NCBI GenBank assembly: GCA_964480475.1
Contig: CAYZPW010000004.1
Coordinates: forward strand, 1 to 58,715
Direction: 5' to 3'
Length of the DNA: 58,715 nucleotides
From: an uncultured bacterium
Lineage (GTDB): Bacteria > B130-G9
Made by a program: the position numbers and the translations under genes. Position 1 is the stretch's first letter; every line of letters begins with the position of its first letter. Below the pieces are notes generated by a model. That model did not search any database. It was not told where the DNA came from and saw only the letters and a list, made by a program, of their open reading frames with translations. Shown piece by piece: positions 994-49,031 of this stretch.

Positions 994-3273
994 CTAAAGC
1001 AAAGAGAATCCGACCTCGCTGATCGTACCGAGCAACTCACCGGTGTGGGCATCGGTCATAAAAGCCCAGAATCTGTAGTTGCCATGACCACCGATGCGAG
1101 GCGTCATCGATGGGAGTCGTGTATTTAGAATCGTAACATCATAAAGCTCAAAGACCGGTGGAAAATCGAGAACGAGCGGGAATGCGAATCCTGTCCAGGT
1201 CGGCCAGAAGAGGAGCCTGCCGTCAGGCGTGACAAGGAACACATAGAGGAAGACCCGGTAGAGGACGCTGTTGTTGCCGCCTGAGATAGTCAGGAGCAGG
1301 TCGTCGCCTTGCACATACATGGTATCATTCAGTGTTAGATAGAGCCACGGACCTGCGCCTTCTTCGCTGATTTTGACGGTTACGACGTCCGTTCCGGTCT
1401 TCCCGCGCGCATCCGTAGCGACGGCCTGGACGCTGTGGCTGACCTCCTCACCTTCCCTGGCTGCTGGGCTCAGCGTTGTCAGGATCGTGTCTCCCTCGCC
1501 GAGATAGCCTTCGATGTCGGAGAACCACTGAATCGTCTCACCTCCTGCGCCGAAACGGACTTCGGCCTTGAACTCGATTGTCTCGCCTGGTTCGAAGGTT
1601 GAGTTGTTCGCGGGCGTGAGGATGTTCACGACTGGCGGGATGAACTCTACGACAGCGGGCAGATAGAAATCACCCTCGAACGAGCCAGGCGCCCTGCCGT
1701 CTTGAGTGTAGAAGGTGCCTTTGAAAAGCCAAGTGGGCGCAATCGTCGTGCCGGTTAATATCACCTCATTTGGTTCCTCGAAATAGACAAGCGTCGCGTC
1801 CTCAATATCGAACGCTTCGTAGGGCGGAACTTGGAGGAGCGATACCTTGTTCTTGTATTCGTCAACGAGAGCGATTGCCTCGTCCTGTGAGAGGACCTGA
1901 GCCTCTTCTGTCTCCTCGAGCTTGCGCCAGCCGCCGATAGCGCCGATCACTTCGCCCTGGTCCCCTAGATAGACCTTGAGCTTGGCGCCGGGACCTACTA
2001 CGGAGAATATCAGCTCTCTGTAGGCTATCTCGTGGGGGTAGAACACGCAGCTGAGGATGGGCAGCTCATTCAGAGGTTCGCCTCTGCCCTGCCCTTCCCT
2101 ACCATACTCGAATATGATCTCAGTCTCGATTTCGGGGTCCCCGATGCCGCCGAGTATCAGACCTGCCAGACCTAGCCTGGCGAGAAACTCGTTTGCGAGT
2201 TTGATACCGATGTCGCCAATCATCAGGTTGGGGCTCTCCTTCGGCACCTTGAAGAGCTTATCAGCCTTTCCGAAGAACAGCCCACCATTCTTGTGAATCC
2301 GGAAGAAGGTGTCGTCTCCCGGCGAATCATACAGGCCGTAATAGCCGTCATCTCCAAGAACAACATCACCTTCCAGGCCCAGGGCACGCGCTATCGACGA
2401 GGCCTCCTGGTGAGTTATCGTCTCCTCAACCGCCTTATAGACCATCATCTCGTTCTGCTGAGCGTTCACGCGAGGCGGCTGGCATGCTGCGTCGTGGTCC
2501 CATGTCCAATAGGAGCCATCTTTGATGGGGTCTGGGGAGACGTAGCCCTCTCCCCATGCGTAATCGTTGTAGTTGTCGTTGACCTCGGCGAGGACCCTGG
2601 CGGTTACGGTCGTCCATCCATGCGGCTGAACGTAGTCAACGGCGAGGAACCAGGACTGCGTGACCGTAAAGGGGGAATCGAGCGACGAAGACCAGCTGCC
2701 GGTCATGTATTGGCCCCACTTCTTGCCGTCGCCCGGAGCATACACATACATCGTGTTCTTGAAGCCAAGGAGCTGGTGCAGACCATTCATCGCGTGGGAC
2801 CAGTGTCCTGCGCTGGAGTCCCGAAGCACGCTGCAGCAGTCCAGCGCGATCCACTCCAGGTTGTTCGTGCCCCAGAGGTTATAGACCTCCCCGGGGTGCA
2901 TGTGCGAGTCCGAAGAGCCGGTGCTAAAAACTACTGAGCTGTGATCGGCGCCCCAAAACGAGTCGTAATCAGAGCCGCCGTGGGTCCCGATCAAAGCTAT
3001 GTCAACAGAGTCGATCCACGAGTTGTCGTTTGTGGTGAAATCCGATTCCCAGGCGTTGGCGTTGGCCCAGTGGAACTGGCCATACCAGCCCTTGGCGGTG
3101 AGCTCGTCGTAGAGCCCTTCGGCCGACTCATCCCAGTGAGAGCGGTCGTTGCGGGTTCCCGCAAAGTCGTTGATCCACTCGACGCCAACAGAGGCGGCCA
3201 TCAGATTTGCGGCGCTGAAGAGCATCGCAGCCAAGACGATGCAAATGACCGGGATAATCGCGCGTTTTCTCAT
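994..3273 (-). CDS. Exported DUF6345-like protein with Ig/PKD-like domain and shared terminal module
   Basis: Signal peptide, AGGAGG RBS; DSVDIALIGTHG and WIALDCCSVL motifs recalled for DUF6345; PPVVNILTP...WFSDIEGYLG Ig-like domain; C-terminal YVQGD...FLVTPDGRLLFWP module. Confidence 0.75.
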   Translation of the reverse strand: MRKRAIIPVICIVLAAMLFSAANLMAASVGVEWINDFAGTRNDRSHWDESAEGLYDELTAKGWYGQFHWANANAWESDFTTNDNSWIDSVDIALIGTHGGSDYDSFWGADHSSVVFSTGSSDSHMHPGEVYNLWGTNNLEWIALDCCSVLRDSSAGHWSHAMNGLHQLLGFKNTMYVYAPGDGKKWGQYMTGSWSSSLDSPFTVTQSWFLAVDYVQPHGWTTVTARVLAEVNDNYNDYAWGEGYVSPDPIKDGSYWTWDHDAACQPPRVNAQQNEMMVYKAVEETITHQEASSIARALGLEGDVVLGDDGYYGLYDSPGDDTFFRIHKNGGLFFGKADKLFKVPKESPNLMIGDIGIKLANEFLARLGLAGLILGGIGDPEIETEIIFEYGREGQGRGEPLNELPILSCVFYPHEIAYRELIFSVVGPGAKLKVYLGDQGEVIGAIGGWRKLEETEEAQVLSQDEAIALVDEYKNKVSLLQVPPYEAFDIEDATLVYFEEPNEVILTGTTIAPTWLFKGTFYTQDGRAPGSFEGDFYLPAVVEFIPPVVNILTPANNSTFEPGETIEFKAEVRFGAGGETIQWFSDIEGYLGEGDTILTTLSPAAREGEEVSHSVQAVATDARGKTGTDVVTVKISEEGAGPWLYLTLNDTMYVQGDDLLLTISGGNNSVLYRVFLYVFLVTPDGRLLFWPTWTGFAFPLVLDFPPVFELYDVTILNTRLPSMTPRIGGHGNYRFWAFMTDAHTGELLGTISEVGFSLL

Positions 3274-6924: not shown

Positions 6925-7029
6925 GTAGGGGCGGGTCTCAGACCCGCCCGCCTGTGTCAATCCGATAAGATACGGCGCGCTCACCCTGGCAGTCAATTGG
7001 AACGGGCGTGGTCTTAAGACCGCGCCACA
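6925..7029. repeat. GTAG REP doublet (REPIN-like), degenerate copy 1
   Basis: GTAGGGGCGGGTCTCAGACCCGCCC...GGGCGTGGTCTTAAGACCGCGCC; homologs at 12743, 31739, 46040, 49155. Confidence 0.8.
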
Positions 7030-8137: not shown

Positions 8138-9040
8138 TTGCGAATAACCGCCGCCGTCCCGTGCTACAACGCTGAGAAGTTCATCGCTGGGTGCATCCAA
8201 TCGCTCCTTGAGCAATCACGGCCCCCGGACGAGATACTGGTCGTCGATGACGGCTCCAACGACCGCAGCGCCGAGATCATTTCCAGTGTAGGACGGGCTT
8301 TCCAGCCTGTCAGCGTAGGACGGTCTATCCAGCCTGTCGTCAAATTAATCACCCTCGATAAGAACATGGGCGTTGCGCACGCACGGAATGTGCTCCTGAA
8401 AGAGGCGTCGGGGGACGTCGTTGTGTTCATCGACGCGGACGCGGTCGCCGATCGCAATCTCATCCGCGAGCTTGAGGCCCGATACGAGGTTGGCGTGGAC
8501 GGTGCAGGCGGGCGCGCGGTCGAGGCGGCGGGAGATTCGCTTGCGGACAGATGGCGCCGGCTCCATGCCTCACAAGGCCACGGCGACGAGTTCAAGCCCA
8601 ACGTCGATTTCCTCTGGGGCGTTTGCAGCTCGTTCCGACGGGAGGTCCTGCTCGAGGCGGGCGGCTTCGACGAGCGATTCCGCACAAACGGCGAAGACGC
8701 CGAGCTGGGCTTCCGCCTCAACGCGATGGGCAGAAGGCTGGTCTATGCGCCCGACGCCATCGTGCACCACAAGCGGACGGACACCGTCGTCAGCCTCATT
8801 CGGATGATGTACCGCTGGTATTACTGGGGCTACCTGGCGATGCGCAAGGCCCGAGGCGCCGCGTTCTGGTTCTACTTCAAGACCATCATCAAGGTCACCC
8901 TGCGCAACCTCCACACCGACCTATTCCACGAAAAGTCGCCTCGCCTCGCCCTGCTATCAATCCTGCTTTCCCGGATCGAGTTCTTCGCCGCGCTGCGCGC
9001 CGCCTTCACCGCGAGGCGGTTTTTGAGGCAGTCGGATTGA
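8138..9040 (+). CDS. Glycosyltransferase family 2 with an in-frame palindromic insertion
   Basis: PCYN, VDDGS, ARN, FIDAD, GGFDERF and GEDAELG motifs; TTG start directly after trxB. Confidence 0.9.
   Translation: MRITAAVPCYNAEKFIAGCIQSLLEQSRPPDEILVVDDGSNDRSAEIISSVGRAFQPVSVGRSIQPVVKLITLDKNMGVAHARNVLLKEASGDVVVFIDADAVADRNLIRELEARYEVGVDGAGGRAVEAAGDSLADRWRRLHASQGHGDEFKPNVDFLWGVCSSFRREVLLEAGGFDERFRTNGEDAELGFRLNAMGRRLVYAPDAIVHHKRTDTVVSLIRMMYRWYYWGYLAMRKARGAAFWFYFKTIIKVTLRNLHTDLFHEKSPRLALLSILLSRIEFFAALRAAFTARRFLRQSD
8288..8338 (+). repeat. Two tandem 24-bp REP-like hairpins inside the GT2 reading frame
   Basis: GTAGGACGGGCTTTCCAGCCTGTC agc GTAGGACGGTCTATCCAGCCTGTC; same family intergenic at 46380-46406. 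Confidence 0.8.
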
Positions 9041-13144: not shown

Positions 13145-13292
13145 AGGTGCGTCTGGGGAAGGGCCAAGAATGGCTTTAGCCCAAGAAGACCCTTCGCCTG
13201 ACCTTATGAGCATTATAAGGAGGGGGGGTGAGTCAGGCTGCCCCGGATCCCACAGCTGAAGGGCATATAGCGGGGGGTCGGCCGCCCCGGAT

Positions 13293-13460
13293 CCCCCATC
13301 TTAAGATGGGGGTTAGGACAATCGTAGCCGTCTGCATCGCCTCGGCTGAAGCCGGGCGATGGGATGGCCCGTGCCGAGAGTTCATCCCTCCGAATCACCG
13401 CGTTTCAACGCGGTGATATAGATGGTTCCAATTATCCTAACCCCCGAATTCATTCGGGGG
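13293..13460. repeat. Array of four hairpins beside TnpA (REP/IS200-end-like)
   Basis: CCCCCATCTTAAGATGGGGG (13293-13312), ATCGCCTCGGCTGAAGCCGGGCGAT (13336-13360), ATCACCGCGTTTCAACGCGGTGAT (13394-13417), CCCCCGAATTCATTCGGGGG (13441-13460). Confidence 0.8.
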
Positions 13461-13511
13461 ACCTGAGAGGGCGACGCGACTCCCCCTCCTCTCTCCTCTT
13501 TTCTGGTCATT

Positions 13512-13949
13512 CTACCCCAGAGCACAGCCATACCGCCTCGCGAAAGCCTCATACTCCTCCGCGAATGTCCTTACCCTATGATGCTCCTCCTGCCCCTCGA
13601 TATAGGCGATGACATCCTCCAGAACGGATTGCGAAACTGAAAACGCGCCATAGCCCCTCGCCCACCGGAAGTGCCCCATCACCAGCCGATTGGCATTGAT
13701 CCACCGAGATGAACTCCCCTTTAGAAGCTTCACAGCTCCATCCACGGATCGCGTAGCAGACAGATCGATCAGTGCATGCACATGATCGGGATTGACGTAA
13801 AGCGCCTTGATGTATATGCCATTGGATTCAGCGATAGACATGAGGCAATTGGATACGCGCGCCGCGTTCTCGCCGTGGAGAACCTTCTCTCTTCTGAAAG
13901 TTGACCAGATCAGATGAATCCAGCAACGAGAATGCGAGTGCTGGGGCAA
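13512..13949 (-). mobile_element. tnpA: IS200/IS605-family Y1 HUH transposase (possibly REP-associated); no tnpB
   Basis: HLIWST, HUH motif PDHVH, KGSSSRWIN, WARGYGAFSVS, catalytic Tyr in AYIEGQEEHH. Confidence 0.9.
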
Positions 13950-19756: not shown

Positions 19757-19762
19757 GGACGA

Positions 19763-19786
19763 GGGCGGTTCGTGAACCGCCCCTAC
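19763..19786 (-). repeat. Single GTAG REP
   Basis: Minus strand GTAG-GGGCGGTTC-AC-GAACCGCCC. Confidence 0.7.
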
Positions 19787-31210: not shown

Positions 31211-31282
31211 GAAACTACCCCCGGATCTATCCAACAATTAATATGCGCCACGTCAACACTGAACGTCAAGGCTGAACGCCCC

Positions 31283-31555: not shown

Positions 31556-31738
31556 TCAGCCCGAATAATTCAAGGGCATGACTCTCGTCGGTGTAGGGCA
31601 GGCTTTCCGAGGCTGGGTCATAAGTCGATTGACGAGGATTTCGTCGTGCATTCAGACGACAACGATACAGGAAATACGGCAGATTGTCAAGATCAACGCG
31701 GCGGTTTTCTTATGCGACGCGATTGTCGGAATCGGCCT

Positions 31739-31844: not shown

Positions 31845-31953
31845 ACAACGTCAGATCCGACTTATTGGACAGCCTCTGGAACCCAGGGGCTGATGAGAGT
31901 GACCTGCCACGCAGAAATCTCGCCGCTGGTTTGGACAAGTTGCGGGCTTGCCC

Positions 31954-46246: not shown

Positions 46247-46406
46247 CCCAACTGGAGGCGAGCTCCCATCGGGTGCGAGCCGTCCCAGTTGATTCAAGGC
46301 ATGAAGCATGTATGGGAGCGGAGGCTCTCCGTGCGGAGGCTCTCCGCCGCTATGGATTGGCCCTTTCGTCCCGTTGATCGTAGGCAGGCTGGAAAGCCCG
46401 CCTCAC
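46247..46406. repeat. Mosaic of dispersed repeats (copy 2 of the 42846 family; REP 46380-46406 of the GT2-insert family)
   Basis: Direct sequence match to 42846-42928; GTGAGGCGGGCTTTCCAGCCTGCCTAC on the minus strand. Confidence 0.7.
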
Positions 46407-46450: not shown

Positions 46451-49000
46451 ATGCTTGAGAGGTTCCTGGGGCGAATAGCAGCTCTCTGCTTCACTCGTTC
46501 CTTAACGGTTATTCTCGTCGCGTTGGGGCTGGTTGCGGTCGCGCTGTTTCTTGCGCTTAGGCTTGAGTTCTCAGCCGATATTCGGCAGTTGCTCCCGGAA
46601 TCGGACCCCCGCGTCGAGGAGTACTTCGATGCGATGTCGCGGTTTGCCGGCTCAGAGACGCTCATCGGCGTTGTCAGCCCAACCGGGAAGCAGGATGACC
46701 GCCTCATGCAGGAGTTCGTGAAGCACTTCAGCGAGTCGATAGCGGAGAGCAAACTAGTCGAGAGCGTCGATTTCAACGCCAACCGGATTGCGCTCGTTTT
46801 CTTCAGAGAGTTCTTTCTAAAGCACATTTTCCTATTCCTCGACGAGCAGGATTTCAACGGTGTTGTCGAGGCGCTTTCTGCGGAGGGCATGAAGCGGGCG
46901 TTGAGGCAGGCTCGGGCGACGCTCGTCTCGCAGGTGGGCCTCGTTCAAAAGGAGTTCATCGAGCACGACCCGCTCAACCTGCGGCGATTCATGTTCAAGT
47001 ACAGCCCGAAGCTCAAGCAGGGCCTGAAGCTCGACCTCGTCGATGGCTACTACTTCTCAACCGACCACAAGATGGCCTTTGTGCTGGTAAAACCAAGAGA
47101 CAACTCTCAGAACCTCGAGTTTGACCGCGCGCTGCTTGGCTTCTTGCGACGCGCCGCAGATGCGAGCCTGAATCGGCTGGATGACTTTCACCAATGGACG
47201 AGGGGCGAGGCCGCGAAGCGACTGTCGATTTCGTTTACCGGTCCCCACGCCATACTGCTCGAGGAAAGCGCCGTCATAAGGCACGATATGTTTGCGACGC
47301 TCATCGTCTCTTTCGTGCTTGTGATCCTGCTCTTTGTGGCGGCGTTCGGCCGGCTCGGCAGCCTAGTTTACGTCGGGGTCCCTCTCCTTTCTGCGCTCAC
47401 ATTCACGCTCGCGTTATGTTACTTGACGCTCGGCCACGTGAATCTACTGACGATCGTTCTGGTGGCCTGCAACGTAGGCCTCGGGATAGATTTCGCGGTG
47501 CACCTTTACAGCAGGTATGCCGATGAGCGCGCCTCGGGCAGGACGGGCCAGGACGCGCTGCGCATCTCGTACACGCGCACCGGTGTGGGCACTCTGGCGT
47601 GCGCGGCGACAACATCTCTCGCGTTTCTGAGCTGCGCACTCTGCCGGTTTAGGGGAGTCAAAGAGCTTGGTCTTCTGGCCGCCGCTGGCATCGTTATCTG
47701 CCTCTTCACAACCCTGATGTTCATGGGCGCCCTTCTAAAGCAGGGCGAGCGATTCGCTAGACGTGATTTCAAGACCCCACGCACTGCGGCTTTCGGCCTG
47801 TCCAGGGTCGCACGCCTCGTATCGAATCGCTCAGGCGCCGTCATCGCCGCTTGGGTAATTCTGACGCTAATTGCGGCGGTCAGAGTATCTCAAATGGAGT
47901 TCTCCGAGGATGTCAACAGGCTCAGAGCGAAGACCTCCAAGGCCCTTCAGCTTCAGAGGACGATAAGCTGCGCAGTTGCAGGCAGCTTCAAGGATTGGGT
48001 GATCTTCAAAAGGGTCCCCGACGCCCAGTCCGCTTTGAAGTTCTCTGAGCATGTCCGTGGCGTCTCAGAAGAGATGATCGCATGCGGCACGCTGTCTTCC
48101 GCCTCGTCGCTGCTCGATTTCGTGCCCCCAATCTCAACGCAAAGGGAGAACATCGAACGGCTGGCGCAGCTTGCAGAGCATGCCTCGCCTGAAGAGATGA
48201 TTTCCCGGTTCGAGGCGGCTGCGGCCGAGAGCGGCCTGAGGATGACCGACCGATATGAGGAGTATATCCGTCGGCTGGCGTCATCGCTGCTTGTGAGGGA
48301 CCCCATGGACCTTCACACGGCCACAGCCGATACGTCGCTTCGAAGGCTTCTAGGACGCTTCCTACAGGCCGACGATGATGGCCTCTACACGGCATGCTAC
48401 GTGTCTCCCGCGAAGCTTTTGAGCACCAGAAGCGCCGCAGTCGCATTCGAACGGACGTTGCGAGAGCGCCTCGGCAGCAAAGTCTCGATTGTGAGCACAA
48501 CCTACCTAACTGCCGTCCTGAAAGACCTGGTAACGAAGGATATTTGGTTGATAGCGATCGTCGCCGCTGGCCTTGTATTCGGCGTCTTGCTCGTCCAGTT
48601 CAGGAGGTTTTCGATCGCCCTCGTGGCGATGGCGCCTCTTTGCTCGGGCGCCGTGATGATGCTCGCCGCGGCCTCGATGCTCGGCATCGACCTCAACCCG
48701 GTCAACCTATTCGTCATTCCGATGATACTCGGCATCGGCATCGACGACGGCATTCACCTCGTGCATCGATTCTCCGAGGCTAAATCAACAGCAAAGGACG
48801 CAATCGTCGGCACTGGCAAGGCACTTGTGCTGACGTCCCTAACGACGGTCCTCGCCTTTGGCACGCTGGTCTTCGCCGGATTTGAGGGGCTCGTTCAGGT
48901 CGGCGTCTTCACCATACTGGGCGTGGGATTCGCTCTGCTAGCCTCAATAACGTTCCTACCCGCCCTTTTGCTCCGGTTCGTGAGGCGCGGGGATGACTGA
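46451..49000 (+). CDS. MMPL/RND-family membrane transporter
   Basis: Two 1+5 TM halves with large loops; GLGIDFAVH and GIGIDDGIH. Confidence 0.9.
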   Translation: MLERFLGRIAALCFTRSLTVILVALGLVAVALFLALRLEFSADIRQLLPESDPRVEEYFDAMSRFAGSETLIGVVSPTGKQDDRLMQEFVKHFSESIAESKLVESVDFNANRIALVFFREFFLKHIFLFLDEQDFNGVVEALSAEGMKRALRQARATLVSQVGLVQKEFIEHDPLNLRRFMFKYSPKLKQGLKLDLVDGYYFSTDHKMAFVLVKPRDNSQNLEFDRALLGFLRRAADASLNRLDDFHQWTRGEAAKRLSISFTGPHAILLEESAVIRHDMFATLIVSFVLVILLFVAAFGRLGSLVYVGVPLLSALTFTLALCYLTLGHVNLLTIVLVACNVGLGIDFAVHLYSRYADERASGRTGQDALRISYTRTGVGTLACAATTSLAFLSCALCRFRGVKELGLLAAAGIVICLFTTLMFMGALLKQGERFARRDFKTPRTAAFGLSRVARLVSNRSGAVIAAWVILTLIAAVRVSQMEFSEDVNRLRAKTSKALQLQRTISCAVAGSFKDWVIFKRVPDAQSALKFSEHVRGVSEEMIACGTLSSASSLLDFVPPISTQRENIERLAQLAEHASPEEMISRFEAAAAESGLRMTDRYEEYIRRLASSLLVRDPMDLHTATADTSLRRLLGRFLQADDDGLYTACYVSPAKLLSTRSAAVAFERTLRERLGSKVSIVSTTYLTAVLKDLVTKDIWLIAIVAAGLVFGVLLVQFRRFSIALVAMAPLCSGAVMMLAAASMLGIDLNPVNLFVIPMILGIGIDDGIHLVHRFSEAKSTAKDAIVGTGKALVLTSLTTVLAFGTLVFAGFEGLVQVGVFTILGVGFALLASITFLPALLLRFVRRGDD

Positions 49001-49031
49001 CAGGCTGGATCGTGATTGCACGCGGGGTTGT

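Follow-up and report, generated by a model that had tools for sequence, protein, structure and literature searches.

The gene for a family 2 glycosyltransferase in an uncultured bacterium carries, in frame, two 24-nt units of a GTAG-tagged REP palindrome, and orthologs of the gene carry zero, one, three or four such units at the same site while the enzyme has stayed under purifying selection. The palindrome belongs to a dispersed and mostly intergenic repeat family, and the peptide that it adds lies in a loop of the protein. We consider it probable that a single tolerated REP insertion was followed by in-frame tandem duplication and contraction of a 27-nt block. The DNA analyzed, referred to below as the window, is the whole stretch of 58,715 nucleotides. 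A preliminary description of the window, made from its sequence, had proposed that a REP-type palindrome is translated in frame inside this gene, and this proposal stands: orthologs lack the segment or hold one, three or four units of it, and elsewhere the same sequence is dispersed, mostly between genes.

The in-frame units and their host enzyme

The features of the gene that are needed for the description are the following.

8138-9040, + strand: GT2 (GT-A fold) glycosyltransferase gene, 300 aa, TTG start, PF00535
8288-8311, + strand: REP unit 1, GTAGGACGGGCTTTCCAGCCTGTC, intact, encoding V51-V58 (VGRAFQPV)
8312-8314, + strand: AGC spacer codon (S59) between unit 1 and unit 2, which gives the 27-nt period
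8315-8338, + strand: REP unit 2, GTAGGACGGtCTaTCCAGCCTGTC, decayed, with two mismatches to unit 1, encoding V60-V67 (VGRSIQPV)

In the window sequence, 8288-8338 reads GTAGGACGGGCTTTCCAGCCTGTC AGC GTAGGACGGTCTATCCAGCCTGTC; codon 51 of the 300-aa ORF starts at 8288, and the units with their spacer make up residues 51-67, VGRAFQPVSVGRSIQPV. The repeat finder placed the two 24-nt units in direct orientation with a 27-nt period, and exactly two copies were found at this position when up to three mismatches were allowed, against none in shuffled sequence. Unit 1 consists of the GTAG tag, a stem of 8 bp, one of them a G.U pair, and a loop of TTCC, its RNA folds at -11.4 kcal/mol (z -3.8), and it is identical to the family consensus variant GTAGGACGGGCTTTCCAGCCTGTC found in other genomes. 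Unit 2 folds at -5.4 kcal/mol (z -0.7) and has lost the stem, since its two substitutions, G to T (Ala to Ser) and T to A (Phe to Ile), both break it. The preliminary description had spoken of two 24-bp hairpins; it was right about the two units, the 27-nt period and the start on a codon boundary, but only unit 1 still folds well as a hairpin. The unit amounts to eight codons and is free of stops in five of its six frames, with the peptides VGRAFQPV, RTGFPAC, DRLESPSY, TGWKARP and QAGKPVL, and it is because of this length and openness that occasional intragenic copies survive.

The glycosyltransferase gene starts 1 nt past the stop of an upstream TrxB-like gene, and its protein matches PF00535 with an E value of 1.4e-30 in Pfam. 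An AlphaFold (AF2) model built from the ortholog alignment has a pLDDT of 91.4 and a pTM of 0.88, and the top Foldseek matches are GT-A enzymes, for example TarS and hyaluronan synthase. The mean pLDDT is 58 over residues 51-60 and 69 over residues 61-70, with values below 50 at residues 58-63, and exceeds 90 in the remainder of the protein. Insert residues 51-67 run in the model from the last turn of helix 44-54 (alpha2) through a low-pLDDT coil to strand 67-72 (beta3), which is the place, between the DDGS helix and the next strand, that the preliminary description had assigned to them. GT-A enzymes have their nucleotide-sugar site where the strands end C-terminally; because the loop enters the N-terminal end of beta3, GT-A topology implies that it should sit away from this site. 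The DxD and acceptor-side motifs of a GT-A enzyme are intact: alignment A1 shows no variation at D99 and D101, and D37, D38 and G39 are present in at least 90% of its rows. Outside the loop, dN/dS between insert-bearing lineages is 0.19-0.20 (dS 0.49-0.58), equal to that of the insert-free ones, and the enzyme has therefore been under purifying selection ever since the insertion. With the ORF intact over 300 aa and the PF00535 match, the catalytic motifs and the purifying selection all kept, the claim that the insert leaves the ORF undisrupted is borne out. The RNA run search found no runs containing the GT2 gene.

An ortholog series with zero to four units at one site

The protein search returned close orthologs of 283-319 aa with 66-98% identity. 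Their contigs carry the same upstream TrxB-like gene, so the orthologs are positional (syntenic). They can be arranged by the number of units that they contain.

0 units: nine orthologs (P0004-P0011 and P0013), with a 6-residue loop (LARLQG, LAQFEQ, LSSHRD and similar) versus 20 residues in the window
1 unit: P0003 (L002, L003), ISRYVS + VGRAFQPV + VKL, a clean 8-codon addition
2 units: the window and P0001, ISS + VGRAFQPVS VGRSIQPV
3 units: P0125 (L209), all three perfect
4 units: P0002 and P0124 (L001), one unit strongly decayed (AGSTSQPV)

In every intact allele, with zero, one, two, three or four units, the insert is in frame. A gap of about 17-18 aa had been predicted for the ortholog alignment; the gap is present, but the net difference in length from the insert-free orthologs is +14 aa, because about three residues of the ancestral loop were lost. 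The contrary outcome, orthologs with unrelated sequence of equal length at this position, was not what we found, since nine of them have six residues in the loop where the window has 20.

The DNA alignment shows that each array ends directly 5' of (G/T)(T/G)C AAA. AGC is the codon before the single unit of L002 and also the spacer in the window and in L209, while L001 has GAT/CAT spacers and a 37-nt stretch that recurs. From these shared and lineage-specific spacers and the 37-nt recurrence we infer that the 27-nt block, made of the unit and one host codon, was tandem-duplicated separately in different lineages. The number of copies at the site thus appears, from the sequences, to have grown by tandem duplication of the unit with its 3-nt spacer and not by two separate insertions. 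The 27-nt period is found in all four in-gene arrays examined (the window, L209, L001 and the doubtful L198), and alignment A2 makes the single unit of L002 the positional match of window unit 2. In the protein tree the insert-bearing orthologs form no single clade and fall in a polytomy with two insert-free groups; because of this polytomy, the argument for a single origin is drawn from the shared junctions and flanks. A cold-seep run holds the L002-type allele. A metagenome scan with the glycosyltransferase protein gave no further close orthologs, and within-population length variation was not seen in the contigs of seven runs.

The dispersed repeat family and a candidate mobilizing enzyme

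Two further copies of the family were located in the window.

31593-31608, + strand: intergenic half copy, a relic of the family, GTAGGGCAGGCTTTCC, with tag, left arm and loop
46380-46406, - strand: full REP copy, intergenic, GTGAGGCGGGCTTTCCAGCCTGCCTAC, located about 45 nt upstream of an 849-aa ORF starting at 46451

The copy at 46380-46406, which the preliminary description had reported as intergenic, has a 16-nt core identical to that of the in-gene units and folds at -19 kcal/mol (z -3.3), and it is confirmed as a member of the family. Of the two partial copies proposed earlier, the one at 31593-31608, between an ORF ending at 31237 and an ORF starting at 31948, is significant (the pattern has 3 matches versus 0.01 expected), but the one at 48999-49009 was ruled out as an 11-nt match at chance level that no scan recovers above chance. 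The content of the 58.7 kb is two full REP copies, one decayed copy and one half copy. Two other GTAG-tagged hairpins with a different stem, at 6925-6949 (+ strand, GTAGGGGCGGGTCTCAGACCCGCCC) and 19762-19786 (- strand, GTAGGGGCGGTTCACGAACCGCCCT), may represent a second REP-like family in the genome.

The family can be written as GT[A/G]GG[A/G]CGGGCTTTCCAGCCTG[C/T]C or, in a wider spelling, as GT[AG]GG[AG]C[AG]GGCTTTCCAGCC[CT]G[CT]C. An exact scan for RGRCGGGCTTTCCAGCCTGYC, using one genome per species, gave at least 110 loci; among the matches listed there are at least 121 copies in these loci, from at least 49 MAGs with about 13 NCBI phylum labels, and our own calculation with uniform base composition puts the chance expectation at about two matches. 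The labels among the matches listed include Thermodesulfobacteriota, Planctomycetota, Chloroflexota, Thermomicrobiota, Acidobacteriota, Verrucomicrobiota, Kiritimatiellota, Cyanobacteriota, Pseudomonadota, Ignavibacteriota, Armatimonadota (Zipacnadia) and Coatesbacteria. The MAG of a close relative, from the same run as L003, has at least 24 REP copies on 22 contigs, a Syntrophobacteraceae MAG has at least 17, and a Coatesbacteria MAG has the same GTAGGACGGG...TGTC variant as the genome described here. Of the 121 copies listed, 66 begin with a GTGG tag and 36 with GTAG at the 5' end, together 85%, and the outermost stem pair covaries, being G..C in 77, A..T in 29 and mismatched in 15 (Fisher 2e-14). 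With 24 nt, an 8-bp stem and a 4-nt loop, the unit is an imperfect palindrome within the 20-40 bp of GTAG-type REPs; the window units begin with the GTAG that tags this type, and nearly all of the approximately 121 copies listed are extragenic, either because no convincing gene covers them or because they precede the real start of one.

The assignment of intragenic status is approximate: it combines an ORF-span heuristic, Pfam searches on the ten longest spanning ORFs and inspection. On this basis, the approximately 121 copies listed include convincing intragenic cases in the GT2 orthologs and in one MqnE homolog only. The latter case (L063 1376-1430, in a Phycisphaerae MAG) is an inverted REP pair of 54 nt (18 codons) that is read in frame within a loop of a protein homologous to aminodeoxyfutalosine synthase, MqnE (6xi9, E 4e-73); the protein has about 10 extra residues there. 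Several other candidates were rejected: at L011, L028, L033, L072, L101 and L106 the REP lies upstream of the likely true start, at L078 (TilS) the sequence turns poor after the PP-loop domain, and at L029, L080, L104, L109 and L111 the ORFs are without Pfam support. An exact 21-mer at L092 6163-6183, in a 562-aa polysaccharide-export-like ORF where it is read GLLGGLSSLSG and for which there is no Pfam match, may be a chance occurrence or a further intragenic copy.

Copies also occur in pairs and arrays. Inverted REP pairs are present at L063, L033, L079 and L080, and an intergenic direct dimer at L049 has the same 27-nt spacing as the in-gene units. Outside recognizable genes, a direct array of at least seven REP units is found in an Anaerolineales MAG (L030 1-600), and a Planctomycetaceae MAG has four units repeated every 28 nt (L013 2900-3020); the periods of non-coding arrays vary from 26 to 34 nt. 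In the relative's MAG CBDVDH01 (L027 2410-2490, L046, L064, L076, L099 and L103) the REP is often part of a conserved element of about 80 nt, ATTCACAAACTGCGGATGGGATGAGATGTG-REP-TTTTTAGTGATTGCTGCATCC, with a T-run after the REP; the element may represent either a composite repeat or a module resembling a terminator. Ten IMG/VR contigs, viral or proviral (L199-L208), carry the exact 21-mer, apparently mostly between ORFs, and five of the ten belong to a single phage type, as one flank is identical in all of them. Rfam has no family matching the element, and a literature search by the core sequence returned only unrelated primer matches and no paper mentioning the core.

The gene in the window that could be considered for mobilization of the family is given below.

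13515-13949, - strand: Y1 (HUH) transposase-like gene, the only candidate mobilizing enzyme that tblastn found in the window

Its protein scores 74 bits against the NCBIfam IS200/IS605 TnpA model (cut-off 55) and lies below the RAYT threshold, with 28 bits for REP_Tyr_transpos (cut-off 80). The flanks of the gene hold other hairpins, not the GT2-type REP, and its position is kept in a relative. When the Y1 protein was compared by tblastn with the 110 REP loci listed, one homolog was found within 8 kb, in a non-adjacent position. No RAYT flanked by REPs, and so no REPtron, was found in the window or in the at least 110 REP loci. Directly 3' of the Y1 gene, 13230-13470 of the window contains four different GC-rich hairpins (CCCCCATCTTAAGATGGGGG; the GTAG-preceded CATCGCCTCGGCTGAAGCCGGGCGATG; ATCACCGCGTTTCAACGCGGTGAT; CCCCCGAATTCATTCGGGGG), a run that recurs with hardly any base changes at the relative's locus L002 (16400-16640) and that could be the end structure of the element or another REP cluster.

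Origin of the array and comparison with known systems

In the course of events that we favor, a 24-nt GTAG-tagged REP from the dispersed, mainly intergenic family would have been inserted once into the codons of the alpha2-beta3 surface loop of the GT2 gene, at some point in the ancestry of a small group of uncultured bacteria from sediment. Three properties would have made it tolerable: the unit is eight codons long, it is stop-free in five of six frames, and the loop is a variable one that contains none of the conserved catalytic motifs. The unit and the adjacent codon (27 nt, nine codons) would then expand and contract as a tandem repeat, presumably through replication slippage or unequal recombination, with only the in-frame products surviving, to leave the present alleles of one, two, three or four units. 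Individual units would decay freely at the protein level, and the extra peptide would be neutral.

Pure neutral decay fits less well with the exact-consensus units and with the invariant third positions of the last unit. At least one unit in every insert-bearing lineage is identical to the family consensus, despite a dS of about 0.5 (0.49-0.58) in the gene, and the last unit, positionally equivalent in four lineages, has 0 of 8 third positions variable, a condition found in 12 of the 263 8-codon windows of the gene itself (0.046, empirical). These observations would suit an array that is more than a passive relic, in which the units are kept as REPs at the level of DNA or RNA by gene conversion, by re-insertion at a docking site or by selection on the hairpin, for example if it binds a protein or marks a site of mRNA processing; the decayed units (window unit 2 and L001 unit 3), which adjoin perfect ones, and the intergenic direct dimer with the same 27-nt spacing at L049 point the same way. 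We nevertheless regard such maintenance as quite unlikely. The conservation of the last unit is only marginally significant, since 28 of the 263 windows have two or fewer variable sites; the perfect neighbors share the host-derived AGC spacer, for which ordinary tandem duplication suffices; the hairpin of unit 2 can have been under weak selection at most, because both of its changes destroy the stem; and the search for a cognate RAYT in the window and the at least 110 REP loci found none. A broader reading, unlikely in our opinion but worth stating, starts from the near-identity of the family across about 13 phyla and some viral contigs, which would mean horizontal spread or an undescribed conserved trans-acting partner, with the in-gene units renewed to the consensus. 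Renewal, if true, would proceed through conversion or through re-insertion at a fixed docking junction, and the older units would meanwhile decay.

It could also be that the loop peptide is adaptive and that the number of VGRAFQPV units tunes the glycosyltransferase, in the manner of a contingency repeat, through oligomerisation, partner binding or membrane approach, for example. The number of units does differ in every sampled lineage (one, two, three and four) and is always in frame, but the units have changed non-conservatively (AF to SI, and VGRAF to AGSTS in L001), the segment is modeled as disordered coil, most orthologs are without the insert, the contigs of the seven runs vary in no case in length within a population, and the same DNA is mostly non-coding elsewhere, all of which makes an adaptive role very improbable. 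We give hardly any credence to an assembly artefact, in which the repeat was wrongly collapsed or expanded. One related contig does look like one: L198 has, at 2745-3050, five perfect units accompanied by direct duplications of 44 nt and 30 nt in the flanking coding sequence that break the glycosyltransferase frame. Because of these duplications L198 was treated as an assembly problem, and its five-unit array was discounted as probably an error at the tandem repeat; in the sister contig, L209, there are three units and the gene is intact. The window array, on the other hand, is reproduced with 0 differences in two JGI assemblies (L007 and L008) and is covered with 0 differences by Logan contigs of three further salt-marsh runs (X1, X2 and X5), it is with 51 nt shorter than the read length, and the three- and four-unit alleles stand in intact ORFs, the four-unit allele in two sources. 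The preliminary description had allowed for a misassembly, and this base-for-base agreement of independent assemblies and contigs speaks against it. Our preferred explanation is thus still the single tolerated insertion with later in-frame duplication and contraction.

Intragenic GTAG REPs have already been documented, and the GT2 array is a clear example of them and not a new phenomenon; the principle of REPs is unchanged by it. What makes the case memorable is the complete series from zero to four units at one site, together with the very wide distribution of a nearly identical REP family. The series is a natural experiment with zero, one, two, three and four selfish hairpins in one loop of an enzyme under purifying selection, it shows a route by which repeat DNA, at first non-coding, turns into new protein sequence with the behavior of a coding minisatellite, and it marks a loop in this GT-A family that tolerates insertions. 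Annotators and users of alignments are cautioned that peptides such as VGRAFQPV, TGWKARP, RTGFPAC and DRLESP can be derived from REPs, and attention is drawn to a very widely distributed REP family.

The Rickettsia palindromic elements (RPEs) were reportedly described by Ogata et al. in 2000, and RPE-1 is said to be roughly 100-150 bp long. RPEs are not known outside Rickettsia. As with RPEs, a selfish palindrome is found here in frame in a functional gene, where it adds a surface peptide and does not destroy the protein. Unlike RPEs, the unit described here is 24 nt long, GTAG-tagged and present in many phyla, and its host is not Rickettsia, so it does not belong among them. CGTC forms the end of RPE sequences, and RPE-4 and RPE-6, which are short intragenic repeats of R. 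conorii, are counted among the CGTC repeats (PMC3733652). The Rickettsia parallel drawn in the preliminary description therefore holds for the behavior, in-frame insertion, but not for the family: it is an analogy and not membership, because RPEs belong to the CGTC super-family (PMC3733652). The proper comparator is the set of intragenic GTAG-tagged REPs of Di Nocera 2013 (PMC3733652).

The GTAG and CGTC super-families of REPs were defined by Di Nocera, De Gregorio and Rocco (2013, BMC Genomics 14:522, PMC3733652), who accept GTGG as a variant of the GTAG tag. The same paper records REPs wholly inside ORFs in several species, most of them in Opitutus terrae, for which about 70 intragenic cases are tabulated, several in transferases; a single unit contributes 7-8 aa to the protein, a dimer or group 15-30 aa or more (PMC3733652). 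The units described here are like these GTAG REPs in being short (20-40 bp) imperfect palindromes with an unpaired GTAG or GTGG tag and G.T pairs in the stem, and in being mostly intergenic with a minority wholly in ORFs and read in frame. They differ in their sequence family, which is not recognizable in the (supplementary) tables of that paper, where its six-frame peptides FQP, GWK, GFP and LESP are absent (PMC3733652), and in that the host is of an uncultured lineage, and they go beyond its grouped inserts in their direct tandem copies, their fixed 27-nt period and the ortholog series of zero to four copies.

The family also resembles the REP/REPIN-RAYT systems (Nunvar 2010, PMC2817692; Bertels and Rainey 2011, PMC3116915), in which hairpins with a 5' GTAG-like tag are dispersed: dozens of copies are present in the genome of a relative, and inverted pairs exist. 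It is unlike these systems in that no REP-flanked RAYT was found in the window or the at least 110 loci, and the Y1 protein of the window scores as an IS200/IS605 TnpA. The in-gene arrays are comparable to in-frame coding minisatellites and slippage-variable tandem repeats, since their period is a multiple of three, the copy number varies by lineage, and identical spacers within an array indicate recent duplication. They are unlike these in that the repeat unit is not native coding sequence but a captured non-coding hairpin of genome-wide occurrence.
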